The notes beneath the pieces were generated by a model. The model was not told the origin of the DNA. It did not search any database and saw nothing but the letters and a program-made list of their open reading frames with translations. Below are positions 38,501 through 59,408 of a stretch of 64,000 nt of DNA, piece after piece. This stretch comes from an uncultured bacterium (GTDB lineage: Bacteria > Omnitrophota > Omnitrophia > Omnitrophales > Aquincolibacteriaceae), in NCBI GenBank assembly GCA_964562525.1, contig CAZLTL010000003.1, positions 4,115 through 68,114 of the forward strand, read 5' to 3'. The first letter of the stretch is position 1. The number at the start of each line of letters is the position of its first letter. Both the position numbers and the translations under genes were made by a program.

Positions 38501-38734
38501 GAAGTTCTCCTGGTGCTTTATACGCAGCGGTTAGATCCATTAATCCTGGCGCCTCTCCTAAGCTAAAATGGCGAATGCCATTTTAAATTTCACTCCGGCG
38601 CCGTGCCGAATCTGCTGAAAACACAACTAGCGATTCGGCGGGATGGCGTTATTATAAGTCAGATAGCGGAAAATAGACAACAAGAAGAAAGGCCATATCT
38701 TGCATCATTCAGAATAAAGACTAAAATAGGTTTC

Positions 38735-39274
38735 ATGACTCAAAAACGCGCAGCCACAATAAGTCTCCTGAGCCTGTTTTCTTACCTGCTTGTGGCTTGC
38801 GCCTCAAAACAACCGCTGCCGCCATCGGGTGACGCACCTTACTTTAATTGGATTCAGCCATCTACCCCCGAATCCTCTTTGACGGGAAAAGCGTATTTCT
38901 GGCCTGCTCCAAGCGGCGAGAGTGTCCGAATAAAAATCATGCTGACGGGCGCGGTTCCGGAAAAAGAGTATTTTGCCCATATTCATGAAAAAGGCGGTTG
39001 CGCGGATGAAGCCCAGGCCGCGGGAAAAATTTACAGGCCGACGGGTTCTTTTCTGGGGTTTGAGACAAAACAGTCCGGGCTATTGGCTAAAATCGAATCC
39101 AACGCTGATGGTACGGCAGAATTTGAGGGAGAATTCAAAAGGTTTTCGCTTGCGAACGGCAAAAATAATATCGCCGGAAAATCGATTGTCATCAGCGGCG
39201 ACGAAACCACATTGACCCGCGCCGGGTGTACCGTCATTCCCGTTCCAAAGCGCGAGGGCAAATCCGCGGATTAA
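38735..39274 (+). CDS. Lipoprotein with Cu,Zn-superoxide-dismutase-like fold but incomplete metal ligands
   Basis: Lipobox LLVAC. AHIHEKGGCADEAQAAGKIYRPTGS and NADGTAEFEG...IAGKSIVISGDETT parallel SodC blocks (FHVHE.G.C..AG.HFNP ; ADG.A ; GRSLVIHAGGDD), but the His63/71/80/120 equivalents are absent. Stop overlaps the stop of giant gene 2 by 4 nt (convergent). Confidence 0.5.
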   Translation: MTQKRAATISLLSLFSYLLVACASKQPLPPSGDAPYFNWIQPSTPESSLTGKAYFWPAPSGESVRIKIMLTGAVPEKEYFAHIHEKGGCADEAQAAGKIYRPTGSFLGFETKQSGLLAKIESNADGTAEFEGEFKRFSLANGKNNIAGKSIVISGDETTLTRAGCTVIPVPKREGKSAD

Positions 39275-42200
39275 GCCGCCGCCTGAATCTGCTTCGTCGC
39301 GGCATATTCTTGAGCCAGACGCATCAAGACATTCATCGAAACCGCAAGCCTTCCATCCTTAAAAGTCAAAGCCTGCACGATGTTCTGAAAATACCCGGCG
39401 TCCGCAAGCAGCATGGGAATATTATTCATCTGATCACGGCTTTTTACTTTACCTGACAGCAAAATCGCCACAAGCATCCGCATCAACACATCCGCTTTTT
39501 GGCGCTGAACATCGTTAAAATCAGCAAAGCCGTCTTCATCAGAAATCAAATCGACGATACTTTCGCTTTTTTGCGACGCGCCTTCTCCGCCAGCGCTAAA
39601 AATCGACAATAAAACGGGAGCTCCCTTTTTAACTGCGCTCACCAAAGAATTCACGCGCCTTACCATCGTTGCGGGAACTTTTAAATTCGCCATTGTTTTA
39701 GGCAGCACAAACCGCACTCCATCTCCAAACGCAAACTCTTGAATGGCTTGCTGCAAAGCAATCTCAAGCTCCGGAGCATCCAAAGCAATTTCCACTTCTG
39801 ACTTTGAATTCTGTAAAAGGACATCCGCAAAAAACAACTCCAGGTTTTGAATTTGTTTGGTCTGATTACCCTCCCAACTCGCCACCATTTCATCGCGCAG
39901 CTTTTGAACCGCCGCCAAATACTCATCAAATCCAACCCTTTCAGCATCGCTCACAACTTGCCGTGCTTGCGAATCAGCTTGCTGTGGACTTAAAGCCAAA
40001 ACTTCAGCCTGAAAGACACCTAATAACCTAGGTGCCGATTCAACTTCTTCAACAACTTTACGACTTTCCGATCGGCTTACGATCGCCCTCTCTGCAGAAA
40101 CTTCCCGCGATTCAGAACGAGCAAGTTCAAAGCCGGTATTCAAACGAGAGAAACTTGTAAATGAATTCGGTAAATCACCCTCAAAATGAACTCTCTCCTG
40201 CTCTTCATCAACTCGATCAATAACATAAGTTTTGCCATTCATGATATTTTTTACGCTATCGCCAACTCTCCATTTTGGCAGCTTGCCTTTAACAGCAACG
40301 TCGGGCTCTTTAACATAAATCCAACCCTCTCTAAAATCAGCGTAATTAGGTTGATTTTTACTCACGAGAGCCTCATTAAAATTAAATCCTTGCATATCAC
40401 GGAAAGCAACTCTTTTATATCCAGGAATATTGCCCTCATCTTTTAAGGTCACGATAACGTTCGACTTGAAAGGGATGGCTTGAATAGGAACATTCGTCCT
40501 GAGTGCCGCTTTTCTCAAGTACGCGCTAAATCCTTCATAAACATTCCGGCTATTGGCAACTGAATCAGAATCAATTTTTGTCTGCTCATAAATGATTGTT
40601 CTTTTCTTTGAATTGCCCGCAGAACCATCTGATGACCAAACAAAATCAATATAATCAAAATCACTATTTTCACCTCTTGCCGGATCCCCTTTTCGAGGAG
40701 CTTGAATTTGCTCGGCACCAAGCGCCTCGAGCTGCCAGGTGATTGCCGCCAAATTGCTTCCGACGGCTGCAAGAAGCTCGGTATTGATGTATCCATTTGT
40801 TGCCAAGGATGCCATGAATATCTCTTTTAAAGAATCCGGCGGATTGTCACGATCCGGTTGTTTCGGAGTAAGAGGAAGAATATCCCGAATATGAACCACT
40901 TCAGCATCGAATAAAATCAGCGGAGTAATGGCATCGGCGCCGCCGTAATCATACCCGACCCGACTCGTATCGAACCCATTTTCTCGAATCCATTTTTGAA
41001 CAATCAAAGAGGCATCAACCAATTTTCGGGTCATGGTCCGATTTTTGACTAAGTTTCTATAATTTGACAACCCTTCAACTTTAAAATCACCCTTTGCGGC
41101 GGAATCGATTAAAGGCCATAAATGCTCTTGAACGCCCTCGGGTAGCAGCAGATAACGACGCTCCGTAAAATAATGCACTCGAAGCATCTCTTCGAGCAAA
41201 AGTTCCCTGTCTGCAGCATTTAAAGGGCTGAGGCTGATAAAGTTTTCATACAGCTGATGCATGCTCGTGAGTCTCAGTTTCTGGCCGCGCTGAGCAATTA
41301 AACTTTGTAAACCAAAAATAACACTAAAATCTTGTTCACTAAGAACCCCCTCTAAAGCGCTAATTAAAAGCGGCCAACTTTTTTCGAAGTTAAATTTTCC
41401 GTCATGAACACTTTGACCCGAAACTTGCCCAAAAACATACATAGCACGCATAAAGTTTTTGAGAGATTCATCTATTTTCATACGATTAATTTCCTCAACA
41501 GCAATTTTTATTTTAACAACCGCTGAGCTAACAACATACTGAGGGGCTTGTTTTTCAATTTGCTTCTCAAAAAAATCAACGCCATGCATCACATTAACCA
41601 TGCGCGCAACCTGAATAGCTGCCCGGTCAAAATCCAAAGTAATCACAAAAGAATCATCGCTCAATGATCGCGCCATCGCTTTCCAATTTTCAAAAATTTC
41701 TCGCTTACCAAAACGATTCAGCATCGACTCAAAAAAATCTTGTTTTTTAAGAATCTCCTCAAACAGCTTTTTGTAAAGAGCTCTCTGTTCACTTACGTCT
41801 TTAAACTTTTCTTGCAAATCAGCATGCTGAATAATTTTATCCGCGACCAAAACAACTTCTTCAAACACCTCCGCCATTCGCATTTCACTTCTATCAGAAG
41901 CAGACTCACTAGCCTTGCCTTGCATGTTTAATTCAACTTTTTTTGAATCTTTATTACTGCGCGGAATCCAAATACCATAGCGCAAGGGCCGCCCTTTTCT
42001 CTCTTCTACTTCAAAGTACACCGCGTCATGATTTGTTAATTTTCCCTTCGTTGCTTTTTCTCGCAAAGCGTCCCTAACCTGAGTTGCTTTTTTGACACCA
42101 TCAAAGTCAAGCAGCACACCCTCCTTAGTCGAACCGGCCGGAATATCATCCGTGAAAGCAAACAAAGCTTGGGGCCAATTAACATCAATGGCATCCATCA

Positions 42201-45200
42201 TTTTTTGATAAGCGTTGCGATCTAGATGGTAAAGAGACGCGTTTGCCAAAACCAAATGAGGAATACCAGCTTCACCGCCTGGGAATGCTGTCATATCTCC
42301 GGCAACAAAATGAGTATTCGCGCGAAAATCATCCGCTTGCTCACGAAGGGTGCTCATCATGTCATCCAGATAAGCCCGTTGTTCCGGTTCAAGCGTGGCC
42401 TCTGAGGCAACCCAAGACTCCAACCCGGCAAGACGGCGTTTTGCGCTTTCAACCAAAGCTTGGCTCTTTTCCATAGCCGTGATTTTAATTTTCCAGTCGC
42501 CTTTCATATTTTTTCCGTCGCGCTTCAAGAAGCGGTTTATTTCATGATAAACACGCGCGGCTTCCTCGCCCGTGCTGGCTCCCAAAATCTGAACACGAAT
42601 TTCAGGCTGCCCTTTACTTTGCAACGCTTCCTCTTCAGCATTTCGTACGATCTGTCCCAAATAAGTATCGGCCCGGTTTTGAACCAATTTGTAATCTCCG
42701 CGCAGCCGATCCCATTGCGCCAAATGTCTCACAAGCAATGAAAGTTGCCTCGTTGTCCCCACGGTTGAAGGCTCAATCACAGGATCAGGAAACCGCACTT
42801 CGGAGCGTAACACCGCAACTTGCTTTGAAATCTCTTGGGTCACGCTTGAAAAATCATCAACGGTTATTCCGGATGAAAGCCCACTCTGCATCAATGCAAT
42901 CAGGCTGCCAATCTGTACGCCGGATAAAGGAACAGGAAAAGAAACAACGATCCGATTATCAATTTCGCCGCGGTCACGGGTTAAAATTTGGGCATTTGAC
43001 ATTATATTGCCGCGCATGGCTGCGATCATGCGCGTAAGACGGTGCAAAAACCAAGGCTGGTCGCGGTCACTTTGAACCTTCATTTCATAAGTCAAACCAT
43101 CTTGGCCGTCCAAATTTTTAAATTCCACTTCAATCCGAGGCTGATCCCCTTCTTGTGCTTGGCGGCCGAAGGATTGAATCCCTTGGTCATCGTAATATCG
43201 ATTCAGTCTCTCCTGAAAAAGAGCCGGATCTCCCCGCATCAGGGTTTGAATATCTTCCCGTAAAAATGATTTTACTTGATCTTGCAGGTCTCCCGATCGA
43301 ATCAGCTCACCCTCAAAGTTTTCGCTCTTATAGCTGACAAGAAAATGGTTGAAAACTTTTCCGTTAATCGTTTTGACAAAAACCTGCTGCACATTCAACC
43401 TTCGCGCAGCCAACGCCGCCGTCATCGCGGCCAAAAGACCGGGCCGGTCTTCCGGCAATCCGACCCAAACATTCATATAACGATTATCGTGAATTGAATA
43501 AAGGTCTGTATCCAAATGCATAGGCATAATCGAATTCCAATGAATATCCTCTAGCCATTCCATTTGTGAAAGAAATAATGATCGAATCTTGCTTAAAATT
43601 TGATTCATAACACGCTGAAAAGCCGCCATCGCTTTAACAACTAAGTGATTTTTTATTGTAAAAATGCCAATTTGAATCTCGGGATGAATCAGCTTGCGGT
43701 AAAAACGATCCAGCTTTACCACATTTGAAACATCTCGTTTTTGCGAGTCAAAATGCAGCCGCATCAAATACCACGCTGGAAACTCGGACAAAACATCGGG
43801 GTGAATTCCTTGCTGGGCCAAGTCGTCTCTAAATTTTTGCTGATCGACTTGAATCTGAGCTTCCCATTTTTGACGGATTTTCGCTTGTGCTTCTGCTGGT
43901 GAACTTAAATAAGATTCCATTTCACGCCGGATTTGAACAAGTTTCATGACAGCATGATTTTGCTCCAAAAATCCCGCACCTTGATTGCTACTGTAAATAC
44001 TTTGCAGTGATTTGCCGTATAGCCCCATCTCGCTCAGCAATCCACGGACATCTCCCGGCGGCCCAGGAATTCGGAACACCCCAAGATAATCCGCCATTGA
44101 AACCATAAAAAGCATATTTAAATAATCCAAATCCATTTGGGGTAAATCCGCAAGCTCAAGCAGCATCTGTTCGAAAGTCTTTCGACCGGCTAAGACATCC
44201 GCAAGAACAGAGTTTAAATATTGATGATACATAGCAATCCATGAAGGAATTTCAGCTGTGTCCAGCTGCAGCTCTTTAAACAAAGGCGGCAGCATCTGTG
44301 CGCCCAAAACCATATGCGACGGCGCATAAGCTGTCGGCACCTCCTTGGCTTTTCCGATATCATGGAAAAGCTCTCCCAACCTAAAGGAAGCAAGCTGAGA
44401 CGCTCCCTTTCCGGCAACCGAACGATAGGCTTTTTGGTATTCAAGTAAAAACTCTCTCTCATATTGCCCCACATTTTCAGGAGCATAAATCTCCTCTTCT
44501 GCATCGGCGAACGCAAACCGCTCTGAGTTCATTAAAACCTGTACTAAATGCCGGGCGGTATAGTATTGATGCGGTGAAATATCTCCGTCATTCTGACGCT
44601 TCAGTATTTTCCAATCGGGAAGAAGCCAATCCCAAAACCCCGCATTAAAAAGCGCCCACACAGCATCGTCTACAGCTGCATCAATTCCAAAAGCATCAAA
44701 AATCCTTTGCGCCGAAATGCGCCGCGCTTGGTTTTCAGACACTGAATCTTCCGCTGAAGCGCTGGCAATCGCATCCCGCAAAGCCAAAGCAAAACTGTCG
44801 CCAATTTCAAATTGAACGGCGTGATTTTGATTTTTTTGCTTCTCCTGAAGATACTGTTTCAAAGCGGATATAAAATCAGTTACTTGCACTTTTTTGCCGG
44901 GCTCCTGGATAGAAACAAGGCGATTGATGGTTCGGGCTTCACCGTTGTGGCCGCGCGCAGGAATCTCCAATATTCTAAATTCAGATCGAAAAAGAGGCCT
45001 TGAAGTAAAATTTTGTCCCAAATCTTGCGCAACATGGTCCAGCATGGCGCCGATAAATTGGTTTAAATCGCGGCTAAAATCAGCCCAATAGGGCAATGAG
45101 TCTTTCCTAATCACGTCAACACCCGATTCCGTCATAATCGGGGGAAGATCTTCCAACCTCACGGCATCCTTCAAGTACGGATTGCTGCTGGCGAGCCCCA

Positions 45201-51200: not shown

Positions 51201-54200
51201 GCATCTGAATCGCAGGGTCGATTTCTATTTCTTGCAAAAATCGCTGCCCTGTTAACGGCGACTCGCTATTGCTAAAGTGTTTTACGGCCTTAATCTGATC
51301 GCGGAAATGAAGCCAAGAACCATCTTTCAAGGAACCAAGCCATTCTTGCTGCATCGATTCATAAACATCCGCTGGAATTTCTCTTGCTTCAGAGCGGCGG
51401 CGGTTCGGCTTAGATTTTCCGGGCGGCTTTAACCCAAATGCGCGCCGCGCATCCATCCCGGTCAATTGCTTTCCTAGGGCGGGTTTATTTTTAAAATTAA
51501 AATCGTCCAGAACATGCTCTTTTAAACTTTGGAAAAAGCCCTTCTCCTCAAAGAATACACTCTTAGCTATACGAAAAAATAAGTACGCGACCCAAAAAAT
51601 AAATCCGCCACCCACAATCGAGGCAAGAGTGACTAAAAGATAAAAAAGACTTCGATCGCGGGGTTTCACCTCAAGAAACTTCCCATCAGACTGAATCTCA
51701 GCAGCCAATAATTTGGGTCCGGGCAATATTCCATCCCCTTCCTCAACATCGAAGTAAATCTTCCCGTCTGATTCAAACCGAGCGTTGATGGTCAAACCTG
51801 AAAACTCACTACCGGAAAAAACCTTGAGTTGATTCCGCTTAAACCCACGCTGAGTAAGCAAATCAGAAAAAACCTCGGGCAAGCTAATCGGAGATATCCC
51901 ATTCGCATAAATATAAAAAACTCCGTTGCCAGGAGTAATTCCATTTTCTTTAAGAATCCTCGCAAGATTGTCCGCATAAGTTTCCATTTCAGAATCCGAC
52001 AAAAGCTCGTCTGTTTCCATATTGCTCGGATAAACATGCGCTAAAACAGCTGGCATACTTTTCTGATCGGAGTGCGCCATCACAACGCAACATTGGTTAC
52101 CTTGAATAACATTAGTAAAAAACGAGCCGTCCTTAACAATAGTCACTTCATTCTCCGTGACCATTCGCGGGCTAGGATCGTCATTGCGCAGCTCGCCGGT
52201 TGAAAGCCGATATGTTTGGACGCCCGATTCAGCGCGCAACTCAGAAATGCTAACCATTCCCCAAACCGAGGCAATCGCTAAAGATTTGACGACCTTGGGT
52301 AGGATTTGAGCAAAAGCAAATCGAGCCATATCTCTCACTTCTGAACGGCTCTTCGAATCTGCTCTAGCTTTACCTTTAGGTTTCGAGACTGTCCTTCGAG
52401 CTTCTTTCTTTAAATCCTTTTCCGTCTGCTGAGTCAATAAACCAAAATGATAATTCTGACTACCTATGTTCTTCAGCACCCAATCACGAGCAGACCTATA
52501 AAAAGCAGTCCACAACGACTTATAAAAATCATGCCGCTGTTCTTTTGATACTTTTTCCGCGGCATTTTCTGCCTCTTCATTTATTTTCCACAAAAAACTC
52601 CGGGCCAAGCGATAACCTGCTTTTACAGGGTCTCTTATCGCTTGAATTGCCGAAGGACTCATTTCAAAGTAAAGTTTTGCCTTCAGCGGCTCAAAACGGA
52701 TATATGCCCAATAAGGTAAGCCACTCAATAATGCATAGAGCACTGCTAGTACATCAGCAAACCATTCGTGCGCAGCCTTACGTTCAACTGTTCCCGAGTC
52801 AAAACCCCATTGATCTAGCATTTGGTGCCCGAGCTCGTGAACAGCACTCATAATTGCCTGGGATGGCGAGACGGAACGTAAAAATCGACTGCCAAACTCA
52901 TTATGTGAATTGGCATTGTCCCAACCCCATCGAAGGCTTCCACGCATAATTCCGCTGACAACTTGTCGTTGTAAATCTGAGTGAGGCAACCAAAGCAATC
53001 CCTTGCTGCGTAGATCTAAATAAACCGCTGTAATAAAAACTTTCAACTCCTCATCACCCAATGGACTCCGCAAAATACGGCGCACCTCGGGTGCGGAAAC
53101 ACCATCTTCGGGATACTCATCCTTCACAAATTCCTTTAAAAATTCCGCAGAAGGTTTCTCTAATAGAGTTGACGTCTTCACATATCCGCCGTGCTTTTGC
53201 AACAAGCCAAAAGCATAAAGTCTTAAATGAGTGATTACCGAGGAGTCTTCTGCTATTTTTTTTAAGAAGGTAATTTCGTTTTTAAAATGCCGCAAAAGCA
53301 CATATCCCGCAGCATGTTCATAACCATGCAAACTTTTTAAATACGCTTGAGCGGATTCATTGGGCAACCGGCTCTCAATTAACTGGGCTAACTTTGTGAC
53401 TTTTTCAGATGGAACAAAGTCCCTTAAGAGATGCCCAAGTATCAAACGCAACCGACGATGCGCGTTGATCTGAACTTCACTTTTCCTCTGCTGAAATAAA
53501 CGGATTTCATGTTCAATTAGGCTGGAAAGAAATGAACGCGAAAGCCCTTGAACTTCGTCTCCCACACTTCCATCTTGAGCTAGGCCCGCAATCACGGAAA
53601 CAGCATTTCGATAAGGCAACTGTATCATTATTTCTTTCATCAACTTTGCGACAAAGTCATGATCAAAGCTCTTATCTTCAGACTGACGAATGCTATCCAA
53701 ATAACCCTGAGCTTTTGGTAGTTTAAAAAACTTATCATTGGCAAGCCCTTGCAAATTCGGCCACTCATCAGAATTAACCCTTACTGCTTCGTTCAGAAGC
53801 TCAAATGCGGCACTCCGCTCAGCAATGTCATACGTTTTACCGTATCGCAATGCATTAACAGCTTTTTTGATCGAATCAGCCGCATAATCCTGAAATTCTC
53901 TAACGTTGCTTTCTCCGTTTTGATTCAGAATTTCAAACACACCAGGGCTTTGAATCATCCACCGCACCATGTGAAAACGCAGGTTAGCGTTCAATAATCT
54001 TTCGGCGAATACTGAAGCGGTTGTTGTATCGCCAAGAAGAATCAATCGGGCATACTTGGTAAAATCATCCGGCTCTACTTTCTCCATAAGAAGAAGCAAA
54101 TCAACAACAGCGCGAATATCCTCATCATTAGCATTTCCGAAACTTTTGCCTGTTTCAATAAATTGAATGAGTCCACGCAACATCTCGCGTCTTACCGATC

Positions 54201-57200
54201 CCGCATAATTCTCTGGGTCCTTCAAAATCATCCTTACAACACCAGAGAAGTCTCCATACGCAGTAAACAGCATCGAATCCCCACGCCCCGCCTGTCTAGC
54301 TTCCGAACGGCCTAATCGCGAATTATCAAAAACAAAGTCATAATTTATATCCGGCCCATAAAACAAATACTCATTTGCATATTCAGCCCACTCACGGATT
54401 TGTTTCTGAATCACATCCGGGCGCATTCTTGCCAACTCGGAGTTAGGATTTGATTCAATTCGTTGACGAACCCGTTTCTCTAAACCGGACTGAACAGTCG
54501 ATTGGTCTGTGGCCACATGAACTTTAATGTCAAACCAATCATCACGACGATCCAATCCATTATTTCGTGACCCAAAAAGATAATATCCCTCCACAATAAC
54601 AGCCTGAGCGTTCGGATGAGATCTCAAAGCTTCATCAATAGCAACCCTAAGCATTTGCGGATTGGCGCCTTTCTTTGACGGCAGCAGATAATCATCCATA
54701 TGAATCACAACATATTCATTATTCCCCTCGAACTGTTTTGAAAATGTTGTTTTTCCCGAACCTTTGGTTCCGTCAATGCCAACCAATATCGGAGTTTCAT
54801 TTTCCAAACGCCTTTCACGAACAGCCGCTTCCAAAAGTTTACGAGCCTCCCGCATTGAATGAATCTGAATATCCTCACCTAAGTAGTCTTGAACAATCTG
54901 CTTTGCAGTACGAGTCTCAGAACGCTGAAATAAGGTATGCGACCGTGGTCGATCGGCGCTTCCCCAACGATAAAGAATTTCCCGCAAAATAAGCCGATTA
55001 CGGTCTTGGCGCAAAACTTGAAAGTGATGGTTTAATCTCAAAATACGGTGATCAGATACTCTGCGTGAAGGTGTAATAAATTTCTCTAGCGCAGCCTCGG
55101 CTGTGTCGAACTCGAAAACGTGATGATCCCGCGCTGTAGCGAAAAGCTCCCAAAGACTCATTCTGGAAAGCTCTTCTGACAAACTCCGCTTTTGATCCGC
55201 AGAAAGGCTATTTGGAACAGGGCGGCCTCTCTCATCAATATCATCGGAAAAAATCCACATCTGCGGTGAGCCAAATGTTGCAAGCTCCGCCAAAACTTCA
55301 TCGCGCATATTCGCACCTTGATTCTTATTTAATTCATCAAGACGAAAATCATCAAACGTCGCATAGCCCAGTTGCTGATAGACATCCGCCCTGGTGAGAT
55401 TTTCACCAGGCTCTGCCTGCGCATCTAATCCGCGCAACCAATCTCCGTGGTTCGCCTTAATCTTTTCTGCTTCTTTTTCATTGACCACTTCGATCACGCT
55501 CATCAAAGCCATTGACTGCGCCGCTTGGCGCACAACATAAGCACCCTTTTCATCGGAATAGGCTCTTGCTATTCCAGTAAAAGCCAGCCGTACAGCGTTC
55601 ATTTTCTGATTGATAATTTTGCTGAGTAACTCCGGATTCGATAGCGCGTCATCCCATTTTGTAATACCTCCATCGCGCAAAGCGCTCCAAAAGTCATACA
55701 GAGCTGAACGGTTCAAAGTCCGCGATTTATTCAATGCATCCATACGGAGCGCGAGCATTTGAAAATCAGAATTTTGGGAATCTGCTTTATGCTTTTCCAA
55801 TTCCGAAATCCATTTTGAGTAATCTTCGCGCGCTGATTCCGAAACATTTTCGACACGCGGTTGTGGCGGTAGAGTTAACGCGGCCGACATCAAAACAGAC
55901 GCCTCGGGCGCAAACGCATTTACAAGGACCGCCTCCGCAGCAGTCATGGATTTAAGCAATTGAGTGACACTAGAATGATTGAGTTTTCCGGAAGAATTAA
56001 GCGAACGCAAACCACTTACAAATTGGTCAACTCGGCGAGACAAACGTTCAGCGACTCCTTCCCGGGGACTCCGGTTTCGGCGTCCGTCACGGCTTTGAGC
56101 TTCATCAATAAACTTTGTATATTTCCAAGCGTCCTGGGCGCGTCCTTGATCCGCGAGGTCTCGAATAATTTCATCGCGCCAAACTTTTGCGGCGTCAATG
56201 TCTTGAGACAAAAGCTGGTCGCGGACTGAGCGAGCAAATGCGTCATAAGGGCGAACACGGTTGCCTTCAAATTTAAAATAGGACTTCCACGACACATCAC
56301 CTGCCATGTGCTTGCGATAAGAATTCACTTCCGGTAAACGTTCAATCTTGGGCGTTACGACGGCATACGAAAGTCCTTCTTTTTTAAAGCGTTCCGCCAT
56401 TCCCTGAGTATGAAAACCGCCGGCAACTAAAATGACCGGGCGAGTATCACTCGTGGAATTGGGCAGCATCTTGCGGATATTCCGCATAAACGCTTTTTCA
56501 CGCTCGACCGAGTTTTCATAGAAACTTAAATTGGCTTCCAATAAATTCCAATCTATCAGACGAAGCTCTCCCGCTTCCCCCTCGGAAGAACCCCGTCTGA
56601 TAGATTGAATTTGATTCCATTCGTCATGCGACAATTCCAAACGTGCAAGTTTTTCAACTAAACGGATTTTTTGGCTTTGCTTTTCTGTTACGCGAATAGC
56701 TTCTTTGCGGGGCAAATCTGTTTCACGCTCTACAAGCTCCTGCTTAATTTCGGCCGCGTAAACCTCGAACTCCTTCAAAAGCTTGGTCCCGCGCATGGAC
56801 TCTAAACGCATTTGCATTGCGGATAACTCGCGCAGCGGACGAGAAAACTGGACAGCTAATCCGAGCCCCCCCGCTAATTTTTTAATCTGAACCGCAAACT
56901 CCTGAGCATTCATTGCTCCGGTCTGGTAGGCTTGCAAGCATCGGTTCAATTCCATCAGCTCTTTTTTTCGGCCTGCCGGATTTTTATCTAACCCGGCCCG
57001 GACAACTTCAACGGCCGCCTTCAGCTCCGAATCCTGACCTTGGACATGTTCTCCTTGCTGCTCAACGCGCATGAGCAATTCAACCAAAGAACCCGCTGCC
57101 GGCTTTTTAACCGAGGCCAACACTTTGATCGTTTCGAGAATTTGCGTTTGATTCTCCTCAAAAGCTTCCCAAGCGCGATCCGCATTTAAAAGATCCGGTG

Positions 57201-57807
57201 AATAGTTTTTTTGTTTCGCAAGATTCAAATCTGCCTTAAGCCCTTTGACGCGCGCTAAAACGACACTCTCACTTTCTAACGCGCGGAGATAATCCAATAC
57301 AGCCTGTTCATAAAGCGGCCAATCTTCAACTCCTTGAAAACGAACATCGGTTCCTGCAAAAACGGAGGCTGCGGCCGCGCCGCTCAATTCCGCCCGCTCG
57401 TAATAATCATTAAAGATTTTTTTCAATAATTTTTGATTCGGAAAGCTACGGAAAAATTGAGGGTCCAACTCCGATGACGCACCTTCCAGCGCGACATTTT
57501 TGACTCCATACTTTTTTTCAAAATGGCGAATCAGGGCGTGAATATTTTTCTGCGCATCCGGAATCGCGTGCGCATCCTGAATTAAAATAACTGCTGGCTT
57601 GTTGTCCGCGCCTTCGGTCTTTTCACTAATCTCGCCAAACTTCTCAGGTACTTGCAGTTGGTTTAAATTGAATGGGAGAGAAGTCTTCGATACAGCTTGG
57701 GGCTGAGCTGCGTACAAAACACCGCCATCTCCAATACTTGATAAAAGCATGAAGAGCGACAGAGCCCAAGCCGTCATTTTGACTAGAAAAAATTGTTTCA
57801 TTCTCAT
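39271..57807 (-). CDS. Giant multidomain secreted/membrane protein 2 (6178 aa). Order: signal peptide, TraB/GumN-like N-domain, P-loop kinase, HExxH segment, TM, MidA-like MTase, protein-kinase-like segment, GlnD/GlnE-type NTase, ACT x2, HD, ACT x2, CheR-like MTase. Recurrent RSExR motif throughout
   Basis: Uninterrupted 18.5 kb ORF. MRMKQFFLVKMTAWALSLFMLLSSIGDGGVLYAAQP signal peptide. Motifs verified on the minus strand at several points (see domain features). Confidence 0.85.
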   Translation of the reverse strand: MRMKQFFLVKMTAWALSLFMLLSSIGDGGVLYAAQPQAVSKTSLPFNLNQLQVPEKFGEISEKTEGADNKPAVILIQDAHAIPDAQKNIHALIRHFEKKYGVKNVALEGASSELDPQFFRSFPNQKLLKKIFNDYYERAELSGAAAASVFAGTDVRFQGVEDWPLYEQAVLDYLRALESESVVLARVKGLKADLNLAKQKNYSPDLLNADRAWEAFEENQTQILETIKVLASVKKPAAGSLVELLMRVEQQGEHVQGQDSELKAAVEVVRAGLDKNPAGRKKELMELNRCLQAYQTGAMNAQEFAVQIKKLAGGLGLAVQFSRPLRELSAMQMRLESMRGTKLLKEFEVYAAEIKQELVERETDLPRKEAIRVTEKQSQKIRLVEKLARLELSHDEWNQIQSIRRGSSEGEAGELRLIDWNLLEANLSFYENSVEREKAFMRNIRKMLPNSTSDTRPVILVAGGFHTQGMAERFKKEGLSYAVVTPKIERLPEVNSYRKHMAGDVSWKSYFKFEGNRVRPYDAFARSVRDQLLSQDIDAAKVWRDEIIRDLADQGRAQDAWKYTKFIDEAQSRDGRRNRSPREGVAERLSRRVDQFVSGLRSLNSSGKLNHSSVTQLLKSMTAAEAVLVNAFAPEASVLMSAALTLPPQPRVENVSESAREDYSKWISELEKHKADSQNSDFQMLALRMDALNKSRTLNRSALYDFWSALRDGGITKWDDALSNPELLSKIINQKMNAVRLAFTGIARAYSDEKGAYVVRQAAQSMALMSVIEVVNEKEAEKIKANHGDWLRGLDAQAEPGENLTRADVYQQLGYATFDDFRLDELNKNQGANMRDEVLAELATFGSPQMWIFSDDIDERGRPVPNSLSADQKRSLSEELSRMSLWELFATARDHHVFEFDTAEAALEKFITPSRRVSDHRILRLNHHFQVLRQDRNRLILREILYRWGSADRPRSHTLFQRSETRTAKQIVQDYLGEDIQIHSMREARKLLEAAVRERRLENETPILVGIDGTKGSGKTTFSKQFEGNNEYVVIHMDDYLLPSKKGANPQMLRVAIDEALRSHPNAQAVIVEGYYLFGSRNNGLDRRDDWFDIKVHVATDQSTVQSGLEKRVRQRIESNPNSELARMRPDVIQKQIREWAEYANEYLFYGPDINYDFVFDNSRLGRSEARQAGRGDSMLFTAYGDFSGVVRMILKDPENYAGSVRREMLRGLIQFIETGKSFGNANDEDIRAVVDLLLLMEKVEPDDFTKYARLILLGDTTTASVFAERLLNANLRFHMVRWMIQSPGVFEILNQNGESNVREFQDYAADSIKKAVNALRYGKTYDIAERSAAFELLNEAVRVNSDEWPNLQGLANDKFFKLPKAQGYLDSIRQSEDKSFDHDFVAKLMKEIMIQLPYRNAVSVIAGLAQDGSVGDEVQGLSRSFLSSLIEHEIRLFQQRKSEVQINAHRRLRLILGHLLRDFVPSEKVTKLAQLIESRLPNESAQAYLKSLHGYEHAAGYVLLRHFKNEITFLKKIAEDSSVITHLRLYAFGLLQKHGGYVKTSTLLEKPSAEFLKEFVKDEYPEDGVSAPEVRRILRSPLGDEELKVFITAVYLDLRSKGLLWLPHSDLQRQVVSGIMRGSLRWGWDNANSHNEFGSRFLRSVSPSQAIMSAVHELGHQMLDQWGFDSGTVERKAAHEWFADVLAVLYALLSGLPYWAYIRFEPLKAKLYFEMSPSAIQAIRDPVKAGYRLARSFLWKINEEAENAAEKVSKEQRHDFYKSLWTAFYRSARDWVLKNIGSQNYHFGLLTQQTEKDLKKEARRTVSKPKGKARADSKSRSEVRDMARFAFAQILPKVVKSLAIASVWGMVSISELRAESGVQTYRLSTGELRNDDPSPRMVTENEVTIVKDGSFFTNVIQGNQCCVVMAHSDQKSMPAVLAHVYPSNMETDELLSDSEMETYADNLARILKENGITPGNGVFYIYANGISPISLPEVFSDLLTQRGFKRNQLKVFSGSEFSGLTINARFESDGKIYFDVEEGDGILPGPKLLAAEIQSDGKFLEVKPRDRSLFYLLVTLASIVGGGFIFWVAYLFFRIAKSVFFEEKGFFQSLKEHVLDDFNFKNKPALGKQLTGMDARRAFGLKPPGKSKPNRRRSEAREIPADVYESMQQEWLGSLKDGSWLHFRDQIKAVKHFSNSESPLTGQRFLQEIEIDPAIQMLGKDDAVYLTLTNYSEGQDSLVAHQLQRTILVLKKSALQNLVDAKTGEFRSLSLYGDRTDSDPSILARFSWGDIWTKRGGRVLREPKLSWTSDLTTGYQSGKTALAYMNFLEDKYAPLNTIYEVTISNRGVEAYLHKQFPQTKEYFLNQKSQGLWIDLFGEKEINRLVDRKSESEIPTHRYVFRMGRSEMRLVEDSQAEIEVAIDQAGGLIPYVQFQELALYGKYGYYSAGAVQFEQIGGTDDVGVQFHTNAHIPAIGRALADQFLNTWKAMGEPDHFDIVELSGGDGSMAHNVLETILMAEEKYPERFWNSLHYRIVELNEVLIKRQQKTLASLKRVLRDRLSWQNASALHTGLGEKSVNGVIYSNELPDAFAVHRVVVRGGKLKEIYVAYNESGFYEKEGDLSLAAKDEIEAYFKLVGGLPPEGKEFAVNLAMNQLMAEISRTLNQGIVLTMDYGFEKTSHRFESDTVNSVWTFGDRDGEPPLKLGVDTTHNIDFQTLQKMGKIFGLNDSEVVFLPHYLGRFGYVGSTANPQEYVLAQARGLDVSVFQKKRSEMRELERNNDFSDRPGRPIQSDLFVDKEVYDLISPEDREVVEGVLSFGEHAENMKRFGDRGVRAIGTSGNTNMTRSVIIPLAKPVVFKGVVYNAAIAKGIRLDSYDDESVRQLPLKAAGQPLEKVDVLDGRIVYGPEGAQALGGLPWTQANEETAAAQFLHFDPNGFHYSSAYPLAKGKISNKYLQTENVRVDLGYELQLVQAQLVVNQFGAIQHDEIRAHRQLIDQVYDFEKFLISGKQGNVAAAVTEVRKVIQKSAEMLREMQKIGKHGSFNLTNIAVWNDQIFAIRDLTHFKRWKNIKTFEDRFAYAFLDFKTLVLGYRDAFASAARRVQQMGISEEDEIEILKLHGKLFFEAFIDGYFSPELRQDARAVFEPYLLKGDFEGLSRKLQQISDLSTESRLAELDDSVIQLLYRELERDLKIVNRSELRFDHQRQDFMDWAKDFKKQYLGEITAILAKPDLEISPEQKSKELSILSDKKIGIIFDLASTFVEGLAGHEADWPVALVATGTYARNELARGSDRDGLMLYPRGADEESYKPLLDYFYYAMLNGLNFSAGWPQIASDDIETRNLTAEEMTEMIDARPVAGSETVVKEFNQKYHRYLQSDFKNPTKDPELEDIKTNVQFLIRHLIKFWQENRVKRGFYDGIFEREPNLKWGAGGFRDMDFSRWILQVMDHRSEEEKALHPKMIAEEEMREAEEAYRYLRTVRWMLHEERVKQKKPLTEKTADILSFEFQQAIAGQLYPEIADPQARLEKMVSRLQSSSQALYLFASNIFRRALHQTSSLNYTPLGDDGKPKWVKGLEADGIELVKRTGKTVFLDTGLKHVVDQVTLTIHPDHVLKSENILNLLQYAVEHKLAMTGELLDEMTRRLPDFSEWVKANPESARTQFLKLRETPQALGYLIFRMHALGLLEDLIPAFGEISSKATLDIKHRETLDIYAIKSLGVMDQILGLKFWEDKPHALVEKVQSEAEFVKNKPELLRSIRDALLVQPLADFMPEQVQILIKQLGYGEESQKSNLVWLIENRDALINFIRRGGMNDPQMFKELRDQKLEGNYERWVLLLLLTVTRMDFFNLGRKKIFSEVLQPLMGLTESQFKNDKELRVRFSQTQHEIQQLAEEGMPEADGKQHKTSVDLALRFIEGSDQFLQVDVVLDPYWNRPGTLLRIAAAFVKHNLSVQNMQIGLVRNGATGDRFIVKLRNPVDGEEMAQVEEKLQTVLREDIKSLIVDPAGKSYQAYLKNRSKIYQPAKPNSGTIPLEVTAENGKKSTFIHLKMEDGPQILFDVARLFERYGLNIMDKSTLDTEGVAEDYKGLRVVDTFEVQKNEGPLDEETIKALIEDMNFLFSSSDRDAAFQNLPSRRSAIHSKIYAEIDELFRVWQSERQYQVYNVKEMEFYFPFARRFFNGRYKSLRNYLDAFYRVTAPWIEELGYADRYDYFRRQVSSLEVGLASSNPYLKDAVRLEDLPPIMTESGVDVIRKDSLPYWADFSRDLNQFIGAMLDHVAQDLGQNFTSRPLFRSEFRILEIPARGHNGEARTINRLVSIQEPGKKVQVTDFISALKQYLQEKQKNQNHAVQFEIGDSFALALRDAIASASAEDSVSENQARRISAQRIFDAFGIDAAVDDAVWALFNAGFWDWLLPDWKILKRQNDGDISPHQYYTARHLVQVLMNSERFAFADAEEEIYAPENVGQYEREFLLEYQKAYRSVAGKGASQLASFRLGELFHDIGKAKEVPTAYAPSHMVLGAQMLPPLFKELQLDTAEIPSWIAMYHQYLNSVLADVLAGRKTFEQMLLELADLPQMDLDYLNMLFMVSMADYLGVFRIPGPPGDVRGLLSEMGLYGKSLQSIYSSNQGAGFLEQNHAVMKLVQIRREMESYLSSPAEAQAKIRQKWEAQIQVDQQKFRDDLAQQGIHPDVLSEFPAWYLMRLHFDSQKRDVSNVVKLDRFYRKLIHPEIQIGIFTIKNHLVVKAMAAFQRVMNQILSKIRSLFLSQMEWLEDIHWNSIMPMHLDTDLYSIHDNRYMNVWVGLPEDRPGLLAAMTAALAARRLNVQQVFVKTINGKVFNHFLVSYKSENFEGELIRSGDLQDQVKSFLREDIQTLMRGDPALFQERLNRYYDDQGIQSFGRQAQEGDQPRIEVEFKNLDGQDGLTYEMKVQSDRDQPWFLHRLTRMIAAMRGNIMSNAQILTRDRGEIDNRIVVSFPVPLSGVQIGSLIALMQSGLSSGITVDDFSSVTQEISKQVAVLRSEVRFPDPVIEPSTVGTTRQLSLLVRHLAQWDRLRGDYKLVQNRADTYLGQIVRNAEEEALQSKGQPEIRVQILGASTGEEAARVYHEINRFLKRDGKNMKGDWKIKITAMEKSQALVESAKRRLAGLESWVASEATLEPEQRAYLDDMMSTLREQADDFRANTHFVAGDMTAFPGGEAGIPHLVLANASLYHLDRNAYQKMMDAIDVNWPQALFAFTDDIPAGSTKEGVLLDFDGVKKATQVRDALREKATKGKLTNHDAVYFEVEERKGRPLRYGIWIPRSNKDSKKVELNMQGKASESASDRSEMRMAEVFEEVVLVADKIIQHADLQEKFKDVSEQRALYKKLFEEILKKQDFFESMLNRFGKREIFENWKAMARSLSDDSFVITLDFDRAAIQVARMVNVMHGVDFFEKQIEKQAPQYVVSSAVVKIKIAVEEINRMKIDESLKNFMRAMYVFGQVSGQSVHDGKFNFEKSWPLLISALEGVLSEQDFSVIFGLQSLIAQRGQKLRLTSMHQLYENFISLSPLNAADRELLLEEMLRVHYFTERRYLLLPEGVQEHLWPLIDSAAKGDFKVEGLSNYRNLVKNRTMTRKLVDASLIVQKWIRENGFDTSRVGYDYGGADAITPLILFDAEVVHIRDILPLTPKQPDRDNPPDSLKEIFMASLATNGYINTELLAAVGSNLAAITWQLEALGAEQIQAPRKGDPARGENSDFDYIDFVWSSDGSAGNSKKRTIIYEQTKIDSDSVANSRNVYEGFSAYLRKAALRTNVPIQAIPFKSNVIVTLKDEGNIPGYKRVAFRDMQGFNFNEALVSKNQPNYADFREGWIYVKEPDVAVKGKLPKWRVGDSVKNIMNGKTYVIDRVDEEQERVHFEGDLPNSFTSFSRLNTGFELARSESREVSAERAIVSRSESRKVVEEVESAPRLLGVFQAEVLALSPQQADSQARQVVSDAERVGFDEYLAAVQKLRDEMVASWEGNQTKQIQNLELFFADVLLQNSKSEVEIALDAPELEIALQQAIQEFAFGDGVRFVLPKTMANLKVPATMVRRVNSLVSAVKKGAPVLLSIFSAGGEGASQKSESIVDLISDEDGFADFNDVQRQKADVLMRMLVAILLSGKVKSRDQMNNIPMLLADAGYFQNIVQALTFKDGRLAVSMNVLMRLAQEYAATKQIQAAA
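42000..42750 (-). other. CheR-like SAM-dependent methyltransferase domain inside giant protein 2 (approximate coordinates)
   Basis: EIRVQILGASTGEEAARVYHEI resembles the CheR RIWSAGCSTGEEPYSIA SAM-binding motif. Confidence 0.45.
44000..44650 (-). other. HD phosphohydrolase domain inside giant protein 2, followed by two more ACT-like domains (approximate coordinates)
   Basis: HQYYTARHLVQV ... LGELFHDIGKAKEV ... HMVLGAQML ... MYHQYL ... MVSMADYLGV. Then GLPEDRPGLLAAMTAALAARRLNVQQVFV and RLTRMIAAMRGNIMSNAQILTRDRGEIDNRIVVSF. Confidence 0.6.
45550..46085 (-). other. Tandem ACT domains (GlnD C-terminal-like) inside giant protein 2 (approximate coordinates)
   Basis: VVLDPYWNRPGTLLRIAAAFVKHNLSVQNMQIGLVRNGATGDRFIV and ILFDVARLFERYGLNIMDKSTLDTEGVAEDYKGLRVVDTFEV. 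Confidence 0.55.
47550..48060 (-). other. GlnD/GlnE-type nucleotidyltransferase domain inside giant protein 2 (approximate coordinates)
   Basis: VALVATGTYARNELARGSDRDGLML (GS/GGxxRxELxxxSDxDL NTase motif). PNLKWGAGGFRDMDF (GlnD PNxKxGxGGLRD motif) about 160 aa later. Confidence 0.6.
49700..50550 (-). other. MidA/NDUFAF7-family (DUF185) SAM-dependent methyltransferase-like domain inside giant protein 2 (approximate coordinates)
   Basis: LYGKYGYYSAGAVQFEQIGGTDDVGVQFHTNAHIPAIGRALADQF ... DIVELSGGDGSMAHNVLETI parallels the MidA LYHPxxGYY...GDFxTSPEIS...ELGPGRGTL blocks. Confidence 0.5.
54300..54800 (-). other. Uridine-kinase/PRK-family P-loop kinase-like domain inside giant protein 2 (approximate coordinates)
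   Basis: ETPILVGIDGTKGSGKTTFSKQF (Walker A of the Udk/CoaA type), VIHMDDY, VIVEG. Confidence 0.55.
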
Positions 57808-59040: not shown

Positions 59041-59118
59041 TGGCGTCCCCAAGCGGATTTGAACCGCTGTTACCAGGATGAAAACCTGGTGTCCTAGACC
59101 GACCTAGACGATGGGGAC
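59041..59118 (-). tRNA. tRNA-Glu (anticodon TTC), CCA encoded
   Basis: GTCCCCATCGTCTAGGTCGGTCTAGGACACCAGGTTTTCATCCTGGTAACAGCGGTTCAAATCCGCTTGGGGACGCCA. Confidence 0.85.
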
Positions 59119-59149
59119 GCGAAAACCAAATTGTATAAGTTCAAACCAC

Positions 59150-59229
59150 GCTGTTACCAGCCGTCTTGTTTATTCGCCAGCGGCGAAATAAACCCGGTGT
59201 CCTGGACCGACCTAGACGCTGGGGACACG
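59150..59229 (-). pseudogene. Degenerate tRNA-Glu-like copy: intact acceptor-5'/D-arm/anticodon-stem, a 25-nt hairpin insert in place of the anticodon loop, decayed T-arm
   Basis: GTCCCCAGCGTCTAGGTCGGTCCAGGACACCGGG + TTTATTTCGCCGCTGGCGAATAAAC + AAGACGGCTGGTAACAGCG + TGGTTTGAACTTATAC. Confidence 0.5.
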
Positions 59230-59238
59230 AGATCGAAA

Positions 59239-59244
59239 ATTATA
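59239..59244 (-). promoter_or_regulatory. Candidate -10 box (TATAAT) about 10 nt upstream of the tRNA-Glu-like leader and tRNA-Glu
   Basis: Minus strand reads AAGTATAATTTTCGATCTCGTGTCCCC. No convincing -35 hexamer. Confidence 0.3.
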
Positions 59245-59322
59245 CTTATTTTTCCCGCCGCGTCGATAACTTTGCACGCGATATTACGGTTGCACTTTTT
59301 ATAAAGTGCAGAGTAAAACGCA

Positions 59323-59395
59323 TGAGGCCGGATGGAATCGAACCATCGACAGCGTCCTTAAAAGGGACGTGCTCTACCAACTGAGCTACGGCCTC
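59323..59395 (-). tRNA. tRNA-Lys (anticodon TTT), CCA not encoded
   Basis: GAGGCCGTAGCTCAGTTGGTAGAGCACGTCCCTTTTAAGGACGCTGTCGATGGTTCGATTCCATCCGGCCTCA. Confidence 0.9.
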
Positions 59396-59408
59396 ACGCA
59401 AATATCGT

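Follow-up and report, generated by a model that had tools for sequence, protein, structure and literature searches.

The stretch of DNA considered here, which we call the window, measures 64,000 nucleotides and originates from an uncultured bacterium of the phylum Omnitrophota (GenBank assembly GCA_964562525.1, contig CAZLTL010000003.1, positions 4,115 to 68,114 of the forward strand). Its minus strand carries two giant open reading frames (ORFs). ORF A opens with an ATG and runs uninterrupted over 18.5 kb to encode 6178 amino acids (aa); ORF B encodes 4728 aa, and its N-terminal ~520 aa share 28% identity with those of ORF A, which makes the two genes paralogous. The subject of this study is a five-residue peptide, R-S-E-x-R (RSExR), which recurs along both products and at which, we propose, the product of ORF A would be cut into separate proteins. 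An original prediction, made from the sequence alone, had announced a single giant frame, a second giant gene on the same strand and a secreted N-domain common to both. These three claims hold, the frame of ORF A having no internal stop and both products starting with a signal peptide; the RSExR junctions had been overlooked.

Upstream of ORF A lie rpsB, tsf, pyrH, frr, two tRNAs and tsaC, downstream a convergent sodC and a bactofilin gene, and uvrC and murJ adjoin ORF B. Since housekeeping genes surround it, ORF A is chromosomal and outside any obvious island. Its guanine plus cytosine (GC) content stays between 0.41 and 0.47 along the gene, and GC content and GC skew are both even.

The RSExR junctions and the modules of ORF A

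RSExR occurs 12 times in ORF A, where the composition of the protein would give 0.15, and 14 times in ORF B (0.11 expected). All 26 occurrences are in the coding frame, and the rest of the window holds three chance matches, in other frames. In ORF A the motif always lies between recognised domains, no domain spans one, and the chain is divided by the motifs into 12 modules of 200-1087 aa (Table 1), each of the size of a stand-alone protein; the kinase module (200 aa), the MidA module (361 aa) and the GlnD-like module (1087 aa) have the sizes of complete proteins. The codons for R, S and E vary freely between the sites. Because these synonymous codons vary freely, it is the peptide that selection constrains, and a junction signal at the level of DNA or RNA was rejected on this ground.

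About half of the earlier domain calls are confirmed. Module 6 is matched by Pfam Methyltransf_28 (PF02636) over aa 2463-2712 with an expect value (E) of 6.5e-38 and 131 bits against a cutoff of 23.3, which covers profile positions 2-244 of 249 and bears out the MidA/NDUFAF7-like domain that had been announced. The GlnD-type nucleotidyltransferase (NTase) is recovered in module 8 by PF08335 GlnD_UR_UTase (5.7e-15, 56 bits, cutoff 21) and by TIGR01693 (6e-39). The four ACT domains are present as two pairs, in aa 3860-4273 and aa 4700-5000, and the one transmembrane (TM) segment corresponds to one strong helix.

Other calls stand in part. For the HD domain, the motifs H..H and LFHDIGK are present and the scores are weak (Pfam HD 0.011, HDIG 1.7e-3); PRK03381 also matches module 9 at 4.2e-11 (profile 599-743 of 782). 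The Udk/PRK-type P-loop kinase has its Walker A sequence, but the profile matches of module 2 are all far under their cutoffs (NCBIfam PRK09270 1.3e-6, udk 7.5e-4 and PRK 1.4e-3; Pfam AAA_33 1.3e-4 and Zeta_toxin 5e-3), the nucleoside/nucleotide kinase families giving 19-27 bits where the cutoffs are at least 173. In module 10 the CheR type is not recovered (E 0.14, 12 bits, cutoff 27), and a generic class-I methyltransferase is weakly indicated by Methyltransf_25 (3e-4). The HExxH segment exists as HELGH in module 3 but matches no family of Pfam, NCBIfam or PDB, and by our own estimate a single HExxH is near chance (~0.2 expected per 6,000 aa). Finally, the protein-kinase-like segment of module 7 is not supported: the module has no match in Pfam, NCBIfam, PDB or among homologues, the segment reads HGS and not HGD, with Ser at the position of the catalytic Asp, and the single-sequence AlphaFold model, at a predicted local distance difference test (pLDDT) of 38, is unusable. 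Profile searches thus recover MidA, the GlnD NTase and ACT, weakly HD, the P-loop and the methyltransferase, and neither CheR nor the kinase. Furthermore, phmmer searches of modules 3 and 7 against PDB gave no match, and homologue searches with modules 7 and 12 gave none at E <= 0.01.

The GlnD-like functions are divided by a junction, RSEFR, between module 8 (NTase, GlnD_UR_UTase and two ACT domains) and module 9 (HD and two ACT domains, no NTase). As in GlnD, one finds an NTase with G[ST]...DxD, GlnD_UR_UTase, HD and paired ACT domains. The differences are the split at RSEFR, the total of four ACT domains and a score far below the equivalog cutoff (134 bits against 519.4 for TIGR01693, a partial match to profile positions 39-455). 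The NTase-HD-ACT-ACT order within one GlnD polypeptide is not found, a recognisable HD coming only after RSEFR, in module 9. The general verdict of the original prediction, an enzymatic toolkit and not an adhesin, agrees with enzyme and regulator modules devoid of adhesin repeats; the idea of one protein embedding the toolkit is probably wrong, the modules being separated by RSExR.

Table 1. Features of the two giant genes, in window coordinates. P0056 and P0147 are other members of the family; UBA2337 (L001) is the closest genome.
Feature	Position	Strand	Remarks
ORF A, polyprotein gene (proposed)	39271..57807	-	6178 aa + stop
Signal peptide, Sec-type (general secretory), aa 1 to ~33 (MRMK / hydrophobic core / VLYA-AQ)	57709..57807	-	hydropathy peak aa 7-25, sequence reading
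N-domain, family-defining, aa 35-640; hydrolase-fold core aa ~58-160 and ~458-530; ~300-aa helical insertion	55888..57705	-	
Module 1 extension, lineage-specific, aa 641-961	54925..55887	-	no family match; common to UBA2337 (L001); in P0056 only to aa 752
Junction 1 RSETR, aa 962-966	54910..54924	-	homology to syntenic UBA2337 gene ends here
Module 2, aa 967-1166 (200 aa), P-loop nucleoside/nucleotide-kinase-like, VGIDGTKGSGKTT	54310..54909	-	sub-cutoff profile matches
Junction 2 RSEAR, aa 1167-1171	54295..54309	-	
Module 3, aa 1172-1820 (649 aa), HELGH at aa 1657	52348..54294	-	motif only
Junction 3 RSEVR, aa 1821-1825	52333..52347	-	
Module 4, aa 1826-2137 (312 aa), signal-peptide-like hydrophobic start MARFAFAQILPKVVKSLAIASVWGMV, TM helix and lysine/arginine (K/R)-rich stretch at end	51397..52332	-	predicted membrane/exported protein
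TM helix in module 4, aa 2055-2073	51589..51645	-	Kyte-Doolittle 2.02 over 19 aa
Junction 4 RSEAR, aa 2138-2142	51382..51396	-	
Module 5, aa 2143-2388 (246 aa)	50644..51381	-	82% identity to P0056 module, exactly motif to motif
Junction 5 RSEMR, aa 2389-2393	50629..50643	-	
Module 6, aa 2394-2754 (361 aa), MidA/NDUFAF7-type S-adenosylmethionine (SAM) methyltransferase, full-length-enzyme size	49546..50628	-	PF02636
Junction 6 RSEMR, aa 2755-2759	49531..49545	-	
Module 7, aa 2760-3181 (422 aa), orphan, holds HGSFNLTN..IRD segment	48265..49530	-	no profile/PDB/homologue match
Junction 7 RSELR, aa 3182-3186	48250..48264	-	
Module 8, aa 3187-4273 (1087 aa), GlnD-like: NTase (GT..SDRDG), GlnD_UR_UTase, two ACT; middle without recognisable HD motif	44989..48249	-	
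Junction 8 RSEFR, aa 4274-4278	44974..44988	-	
Module 9, aa 4279-5000 (722 aa), HD-type phosphohydrolase (PHQYYTARH ... LFHDIGK) and two ACT, like GlnD C-terminal half	42808..44973	-	
Junction 9 RSEVR, aa 5001-5005	42793..42807	-	
Module 10, aa 5006-5305 (300 aa), probable class-I SAM methyltransferase (ILGASTGEE)	41893..42792	-	Methyltransf_25
Junction 10 RSEMR, aa 5306-5310	41878..41892	-	
Module 11, aa 5311-5896 (586 aa)	40120..41877	-	no Pfam/NCBIfam match; weak similarity to P0147 module
Double junction RSESR aa 5897-5901, 10-aa spacer, RSESR aa 5912-5916	40060..40119	-	
Module 12, aa 5917-6178 (262 aa), family terminal module, tail ...LAQEYAATKQIQAAA-COOH	39274..40059	-	82-86% identity to P0056 end
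ORF B, giant paralogue of the family of ORF A	3185..17371	-	signal peptide, N-domain, 14 RSExR, tail ...RRVMTSA

A family with a common head, a common tail and exchangeable cargo

ORF A matches homologues at E 1e-110, and its first ~640 aa match only uncharacterised proteins, most of them labelled Omnitrophota and most broken off at contig ends. In the GTDB collection, taken with one genome per species, 150 stretches encode relatives and every named organism belongs to the Omnitrophota; several genomes have many paralogues, with at least 9 in genome JBAYGD01 and 4 in genome JACKFM01 among the 80 loci kept, and some of these are tandem genes separated by 84-314 bp. A profile of the N-domain searched against 1.84 billion cluster representatives finds 9,944 of them, 6,909 at E <= 1e-30, and among the best 150 matches listed the lengths go up to 7,984 aa and the domain is N-terminal in almost all. 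The family is therefore very large, and its head, junction motif and tail appear undescribed: text searches of the Omnitrophota giant-protein papers gave no N-terminal TIKI-like domain, RSExR junction, terminal module or ...AA/SA tail, and a full-text literature search for 'RSExR' gave nothing relevant.

The junction peptide is a property of the whole family. Across 165 family proteins we count 751 RSE.R where 12.3 would be expected (61-fold enrichment); RAE.R is enriched 9-fold, and the other one-residue variants range from none to ~4-fold (KSE.R 3.7, RPE.R 4.0, RTE.R 3.0). The x of RSExR is L, V, A, M or T. The sequence around the motif is not conserved, and it is rich in small residues on the N-terminal side and in acidic ones on the C-terminal side. 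The first motif, which comes after the N-domain, has a median position of 678, and the spacing between motifs, which is the length of the modules, has a median of 314 aa and an interquartile range of 192-500. Neighbouring, adjacent and overlapping duplicates are common, 45 of the 613 inter-motif gaps being shorter than 40 aa. Ordinary genes at the same loci are essentially free of the motif, and their few background matches lie almost all in adjacent giant ORFs that carry the family tail.

Some lineages use a dialect of the motif, which is then common to all the paralogues of the genome. In JBAYGD01 (L018-L070) it reads R[S/A/P]ExR, each variant being 14-18-fold enriched, and in JACKFM01 it reads RTExR. 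Such dialects would fit a recognition factor that co-evolves with its sites. A chemistry that depends on the Ser, either self-cleavage by N-O acyl shift or a phospho-site, was rejected, Ala, Pro or Thr replacing Ser in whole lineages. Some genomes have another dialect or a much lower motif density together with an intact head domain, and the JACKFM01 members L005, L047 and L061 possess a repeated EAQIYFYxE-type element.

The head, to which the original prediction had assigned no family, was modelled confidently with AlphaFold from an alignment of 18 sequences in which ORF A is the query row, with a pLDDT of 83.8. The model displays an alpha/beta core, with strands at model residues 29-49, 75-78, 127-130, 429-434 and 451-457, and a ~300-aa helical domain inserted into it; the parallel beta-sheet alpha/beta core fold of the TIKI/TraB/ChaN/Ere/RRSP superfamily is found in this model. 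Residues D78-A-H80, E108-G, E161, R436 and G463-G-F-H466 are invariant in the 18 sequences. According to the structure paper on RRSP, the active members combine a Glu-x-His with a Glu placed 28 residues beyond its His and with another His further on, the catalytic residues of RRSP being E3900, H3902, E3930 and H4030 and the corresponding pair of Bcr135 being H85/E113. The D78-x-H80, E108 and H466 of the head have the same 28-residue His-Glu spacing as RRSP and Bcr135, and the series D-x-H, Glu, G-G-x-H would correspond to their E-x-H/Glu/His arrangement. The head differs from the superfamily by its ~300-aa helical insertion, by a first 'GxxH' that reads QDAH and by the lack of a sequence-profile match: a Pfam search gives none at E <= 5, and the family profile has no meaningful match among the PDB sequences. 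Foldseek against PDB is not significant, the same Ere-like proteins ranking first. The fold ranking and the motif spacing place the modelled head in the hydrolase fold of the TIKI/TraB/ChaN/Ere/RRSP type and make hydrolytic activity probable, be it that of a peptidase, as in TIKI and RRSP, or of an esterase, as in Ere. In ORF B the corresponding motifs read IEDAH and GGFHKQG. A coupling of motif loss to the loss of the head catalytic residues was considered and rejected, none being found.

At the other end of the chain, 112 of the 137 newly retrieved members terminate in AA or SA after a conserved amphipathic tail, and in 58 of these 112 a distance of 250-300 aa separates the last motif from the C-terminus. 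A fixed head (signal peptide and N-domain) and a fixed tail module of ~285 aa (...AA/SA) bracket a freely exchangeable cargo. ORF A has all the features of the family: the signal peptide and the ~600-aa N-domain with its DAH, EG, E, R and GGxH, multiple R-[S>A,T,P]-E-x-R, and a terminal module that extends over 262 aa after the last motif to the end ...QIQAAA. The terminal module was rejected as a protease, since it has no invariant Cys, His or Ser.

The tails often hold a degenerate version of the motif, with 3-5 residues between it and the final AA/SA (RSELRIHQAA, RAEVRKAA; P0001, P0009, P0076, P0137; window 39274-39333 in ORF A), and the small apolar -AA end recalls the recognition tags of the ssrA type and of tail-specific proteases. 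The family genes may stand in tandem, upstream giant ORFs with the family tail ending 84-733 bp before the next head (L016, L018, L027, L057, L059, L066, L075). A minimal member, P0026, consists in 596 aa of the head and the family tail only and may be the ancestral form, and L050 is a head-only ORF of 555 aa that ends ...GKA without the AA/SA tail.

In ten members that measure 4,100-4,900 aa, most of the cargo is of a metabolic or regulatory kind: FHA, methyltransferases, PdxA, PCMT, PPDK, ABC1 kinase, adenylate kinase, HATPase, peptidase M48, 2-hydroxyacid dehydrogenase and HTH are found, and most of the sequence is without annotation. The modules of ORF B are methyltransferase-, GNAT- and HAD-like, with ~7 hydrophobic helices. 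An HExxH module as the processing protease of the family was rejected, HExxH being sporadic among the members, and so was a fixed N-out/C-in topology, since members have anything from 0 to 7 TM helices behind the head.

How the cargo changes is visible between close relatives. In the closest genome, UBA2337 (L001), the orthologous gene is likewise directly downstream of tsaC and shares 68% identity with ORF A over aa 1-966, then no similarity from the first RSExR on; the nucleotide alignment stops 13 nt before the motif. The family member P0056 (5881 aa) is a mosaic with respect to ORF A: its head is 80%, its module 5 counterpart 82% and its terminal module 82-86% identical, the counterparts of the two GlnD-like modules are 27% and 23% identical, and modules 2, 3, 6, 7, 10 and 11 are absent. 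The same cassette is also encountered at different positions, with an alignment that ends at motifs on both sides (L016 3392-3715 and L027 1618-1941, 80% identity). Among 82 family ORFs, 31% of the starts and 20% of the ends of the cargo alignments fall within 10 aa of a motif, where random placement gives 5%. As judged from these alignments, the modules are swapped as cassettes with breakpoints at RSExR.

The module that follows the head in UBA2337 (L001 ORF aa 981 on) is a different P-loop kinase, of the adenylate-kinase type (GAPGAGKGT, where ORF A has the Udk-like GIDGTKGSGKTT); it has no detectable homology to the first cargo kinase of ORF A (window 54310-54909), which looks like a like-for-like functional replacement. 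The GlnD-like pair (window 42808-48249; P0056 aa 3126-4930) is kept between blocks of ~80% identity despite its own divergence, and is either replaced by a distant allele or very fast-evolving. The hydrophobic start of module 4 (first ~50 aa; window 52183-52332) forms in P0056 a mini-module of 55 aa between two RSExR (aa 1881-1945), which, if cut, would give a small hydrophobic peptide.

These comparisons also bear on the possibility that ORF A is an assembly chimera or a decaying pseudogene, whose long frame joins unrelated genes artefactually. The sequence is a singleton on a metagenome-derived contig and many of its modules are without homologues, as an artefact would be. We nevertheless consider this explanation very improbable, for the frame is free of stops over its whole length and even in composition, P0056 has the same head-cargo-tail order with its ~80% identical blocks in the same succession, thousands of independent members have the same architecture, and the motif is in frame at every junction.

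Proposed cleavage at the junctions

In the model we propose, to which we give a probability of about 0.58, ORF A encodes a polyprotein precursor that would be cut at RSExR, and not a single working enzyme of 6178 aa. The 12 self-contained modules would be joined by the linker peptide R-S-E-[L/V/A/M/T]-R, and a site-specific endoprotease would cut at or next to each RSExR, probably in the cytoplasm, during translation or soon after it. Module 1 would give a Sec-exported hydrolase of the TIKI/TraB/erythromycin-esterase/RRSP fold, and module 4 a protein that is either exported or lodged in the membrane. About ten products would be cytoplasmic: a P-loop nucleotide kinase, an HExxH protein, a MidA-type methyltransferase, a class-I methyltransferase, the terminal module, three proteins without a recognised family and a 'split GlnD' pair, one partner with the nucleotidyltransferase and two ACT domains, the other with HD and two ACT domains. 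The head is the only conserved hydrolase of the family, but since export is predicted for it, the cutting would more likely be done in trans, by a cytoplasmic protease co-evolving with the motif. We infer the cleavage, its place and the protease from the comparison of sequences.

The twin-arginine translocation (Tat) and lipoprotein signals act at free N-termini. In relatives of ORF A, some modules open with an export signal straight after a motif: a Tat signal in P0041 and L016 (RSEAR..SSRRYFLG..VLAQS), a Tat lipoprotein signal in L007 (RSEMR-RRDFLG..LTGC), a lipoprotein signal in P0110 (..LAGC) and a Sec signal in L012 (..TYAQS). Tat-like starts after motifs number 9 against 1.1 expected at random positions, a count that includes overlapping or near-duplicate entries (P0041/L016) and one lax KR match only (ORF B, aa 2813); lipobox starts number 2 against 0.06 expected. 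Hydrophobic windows are nearly absent from the 30 aa before the motifs and 2-3-fold enriched 10-60 aa after them. Since these export signals sit right after the motif and need free N-termini, the motif would mark a new N-terminus on the cytoplasmic side.

In the case of ORF A, targeting signals occur only in module 1 (Sec) and in module 4 (signal-like start, TM helix and K/R-rich stretch). If the chain stayed whole, its signal peptide and single TM helix would carry the ATP-dependent kinase out of the cell; in a cut chain the kinase would be in the cytoplasm. Because modules 1 and 4 are the only ones with targeting signals, cleavage would resolve the puzzle of cytosolic enzymes encoded behind a signal peptide: after cutting, the modules with kinase, MidA, GlnD-like, HD/ACT and methyltransferase domains would stay in the cytoplasm beside their co-substrates.

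Several points weigh against this model. The head is predicted to be exported, yet the signal-peptide argument places the cleavage in the cytoplasm. Members L005, L047 and L061, which are without exact RSExR, have the head catalytic residues intact, so that the presence of the head does not strictly depend on that of the motif. There are only a few Tat and lipoprotein examples, and the signal-like segments inside the chains could be left over from gene fusions and act today as membrane anchors; a 2026 preprint (10.64898/2026.06.07.730766) reads such proteins as multi-pass membrane proteins. No gene for a protease or a secretion partner adjoins ORF A or ORF B, the neighbours being the housekeeping genes named above. 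Finally, some members have a motif 5-9 aa from the C-terminus, which is odd for a processing site.

The last two points are also in keeping with an uncleaved product, that is, a giant multi-enzyme membrane protein anchored by its signal peptide and TM helix, in which RSExR would be a conserved inter-domain linker or a docking peptide, bound for instance by a chaperone, a modifying enzyme or a scaffold: no protease is found among the neighbours of ORF A, and cutting so close to the C-terminus would free a tiny peptide only. Few or no exact motifs are present in some members, and the giant proteins of the Omnitrophota are currently described as signal-peptide-plus-TM 'multi-enzyme metabolic clusters', possibly acting at the membrane. 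We find this reading unlikely. Tat and lipoprotein signals right after the motifs would be hard to explain inside an intact chain, and the topology would leave a P-loop kinase outside the cell. Furthermore, duplicated, adjacent and overlapping motifs with unconserved flanks of the disordered type are typical of processing sites, and the replacement of Ser by Ala, Pro or Thr in some lineages speaks against a phosphorylation site.

Known systems and the giant genes of the Omnitrophota

The MARTX toxins of Vibrio (3,500-5,200 aa) resemble the family by their conserved ends, their exchangeable effector modules and the mosaic cargo between strains. Their modules are freed by cutting in the inter-domain linkers, as would be the case here according to our model, and one of their effectors, RRSP, has the fold predicted for the head. 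ORF A differs from them by the lack of RTX/glycine-rich repeats and of the inositol-hexakisphosphate-activated cysteine protease domain (C80), by a Sec signal in place of type I secretion, and by a family cargo that is metabolic or regulatory and not cytotoxic. MARTX processing sites are Leu-X, whereas the junction here is a fixed motif of five residues.

The family could accordingly be viewed as MARTX-like carriers of several effectors, exported from the cell, in which the TIKI/RRSP-like head would cut RSExR outside the cell or in a host or prey and would free host-modifying enzymes, among them the GlnD/GlnE-type NTase. The Sec signal, the conserved head and tail and the hypervariable cargo replaced at an orthologous locus recall MARTX and polymorphic toxins, the fold of the head and its putative catalytic residues of the 2His/2Glu type are those of a superfamily to which TIKI and RRSP, both site-specific endopeptidases, belong, and many complete members have no TM helix after the head. 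In addition, the Omnitrophota have been proposed to be parasites or predators, and the Legionella effector DrrA uses a GlnE-like AMPylation domain. We judge such a carrier improbable: the cargo is mostly of a metabolic or housekeeping kind (PdxA, PCMT, PPDK, adenylate kinase, 2-hydroxyacid dehydrogenase, HTH) and not toxin-like, the modules' own Tat, Sec and lipoprotein signals imply sorting from the cytoplasm of the producer, in ORF A a TM helix of the stop-transfer type is followed by a K/R-rich stretch and ORF B has its hydrophobic helices, and neither RTX repeats, a cysteine protease domain (Pfam, ORFs A and B) nor dedicated secretion genes nearby are found.

The viral polyproteins of picornaviruses and nidoviruses consist, as our model supposes for ORF A, of many complete proteins in one chain, with a short conserved motif at the junctions. 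ORF A, on the other hand, is cellular, chromosomal and placed among housekeeping genes, it encodes no recognisable protease of the viral type, and its cleavage is a proposal. As for the polymorphic toxins, in which the motifs are VENN for CdiA and PxxxxDPxGL for Rhs, they also have a conserved N-terminal part that ends at a short peptide beyond which the sequence is replaced between close relatives; the differences are the many cassettes per protein, the conserved C-terminus, the non-toxin cargo and the absence of immunity genes next to ORF A.

Giant multi-enzyme ORFs of the Omnitrophota with a signal peptide or TM segments have been described (West-Roberts et al. 2023, bioRxiv 10.1101/2023.11.21.568195; Seymour et al. 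2023, PMC10066038; 10.64898/2026.06.07.730766). In these giant-gene papers, cleavage was suggested from C39 and S8 peptidase domains; no cleavage points were known to West-Roberts et al., and the words cleavage, motif and polyprotein are not used in the 2026 preprint. ORF A resembles these giants by its phylum, its very long frame, its signal peptide and TM helix, its many unrelated enzyme domains (methyltransferases, kinases and PPDK in the family at large) and its poorly conserved sequence. Compared by their texts, the studies differ from ours in dealing with proteins of at least 10,000 aa (ORFs >20 kb in Seymour et al.).

Is the product of such a gene one chain, or is it cut? This is a recognised puzzle for the giant genes of the Omnitrophota, and the motif makes the question experimental. 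Could R-[S/A/T/P]-E-x-R be the general site of a dedicated endoprotease that co-evolves with each lineage? If so, the Omnitrophota would express a sizeable share of their accessory proteome as virus-like polyproteins, from thousands of genes of 5-25 proteins each, cut in the cytoplasm and sorted by their own Sec, Tat or lipoprotein signals, and the missing 'cleavage points' of the giant genes of the phylum would be supplied. We hold this extension tentatively, at somewhat less than an even chance; to our knowledge, no cellular organism is known to express genes in this manner on such a scale. Confirmation of the cleavage would establish a bacterial, chromosome-encoded polyprotein strategy with exchangeable enzyme cassettes, provide a rule to split giant ORFs into units for annotation and structure prediction, and point to a site-specific protease of possible biotechnological use. 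Regardless of cleavage, our observations offer a modelled fold and a probable catalytic centre for a very large uncharacterised domain family.

Some minor features of the locus complete this description. The stop codon of ORF A overlaps that of the convergent sodC (38603-39274, plus strand) at 39271-39274, and no intergenic terminator region separates the two genes. A pair of tRNA genes, Leu-CAA and Ala-GGC, lies at window 34315-34640; beside it, at ~34165, an additional RSESR was rejected as a junction, being a chance match outside genes in this tRNA-bearing region. The other tRNA pair, Glu-TTC and Lys-TTT, is situated at 59041-59396, between frr and tsaC and just upstream of ORF A.

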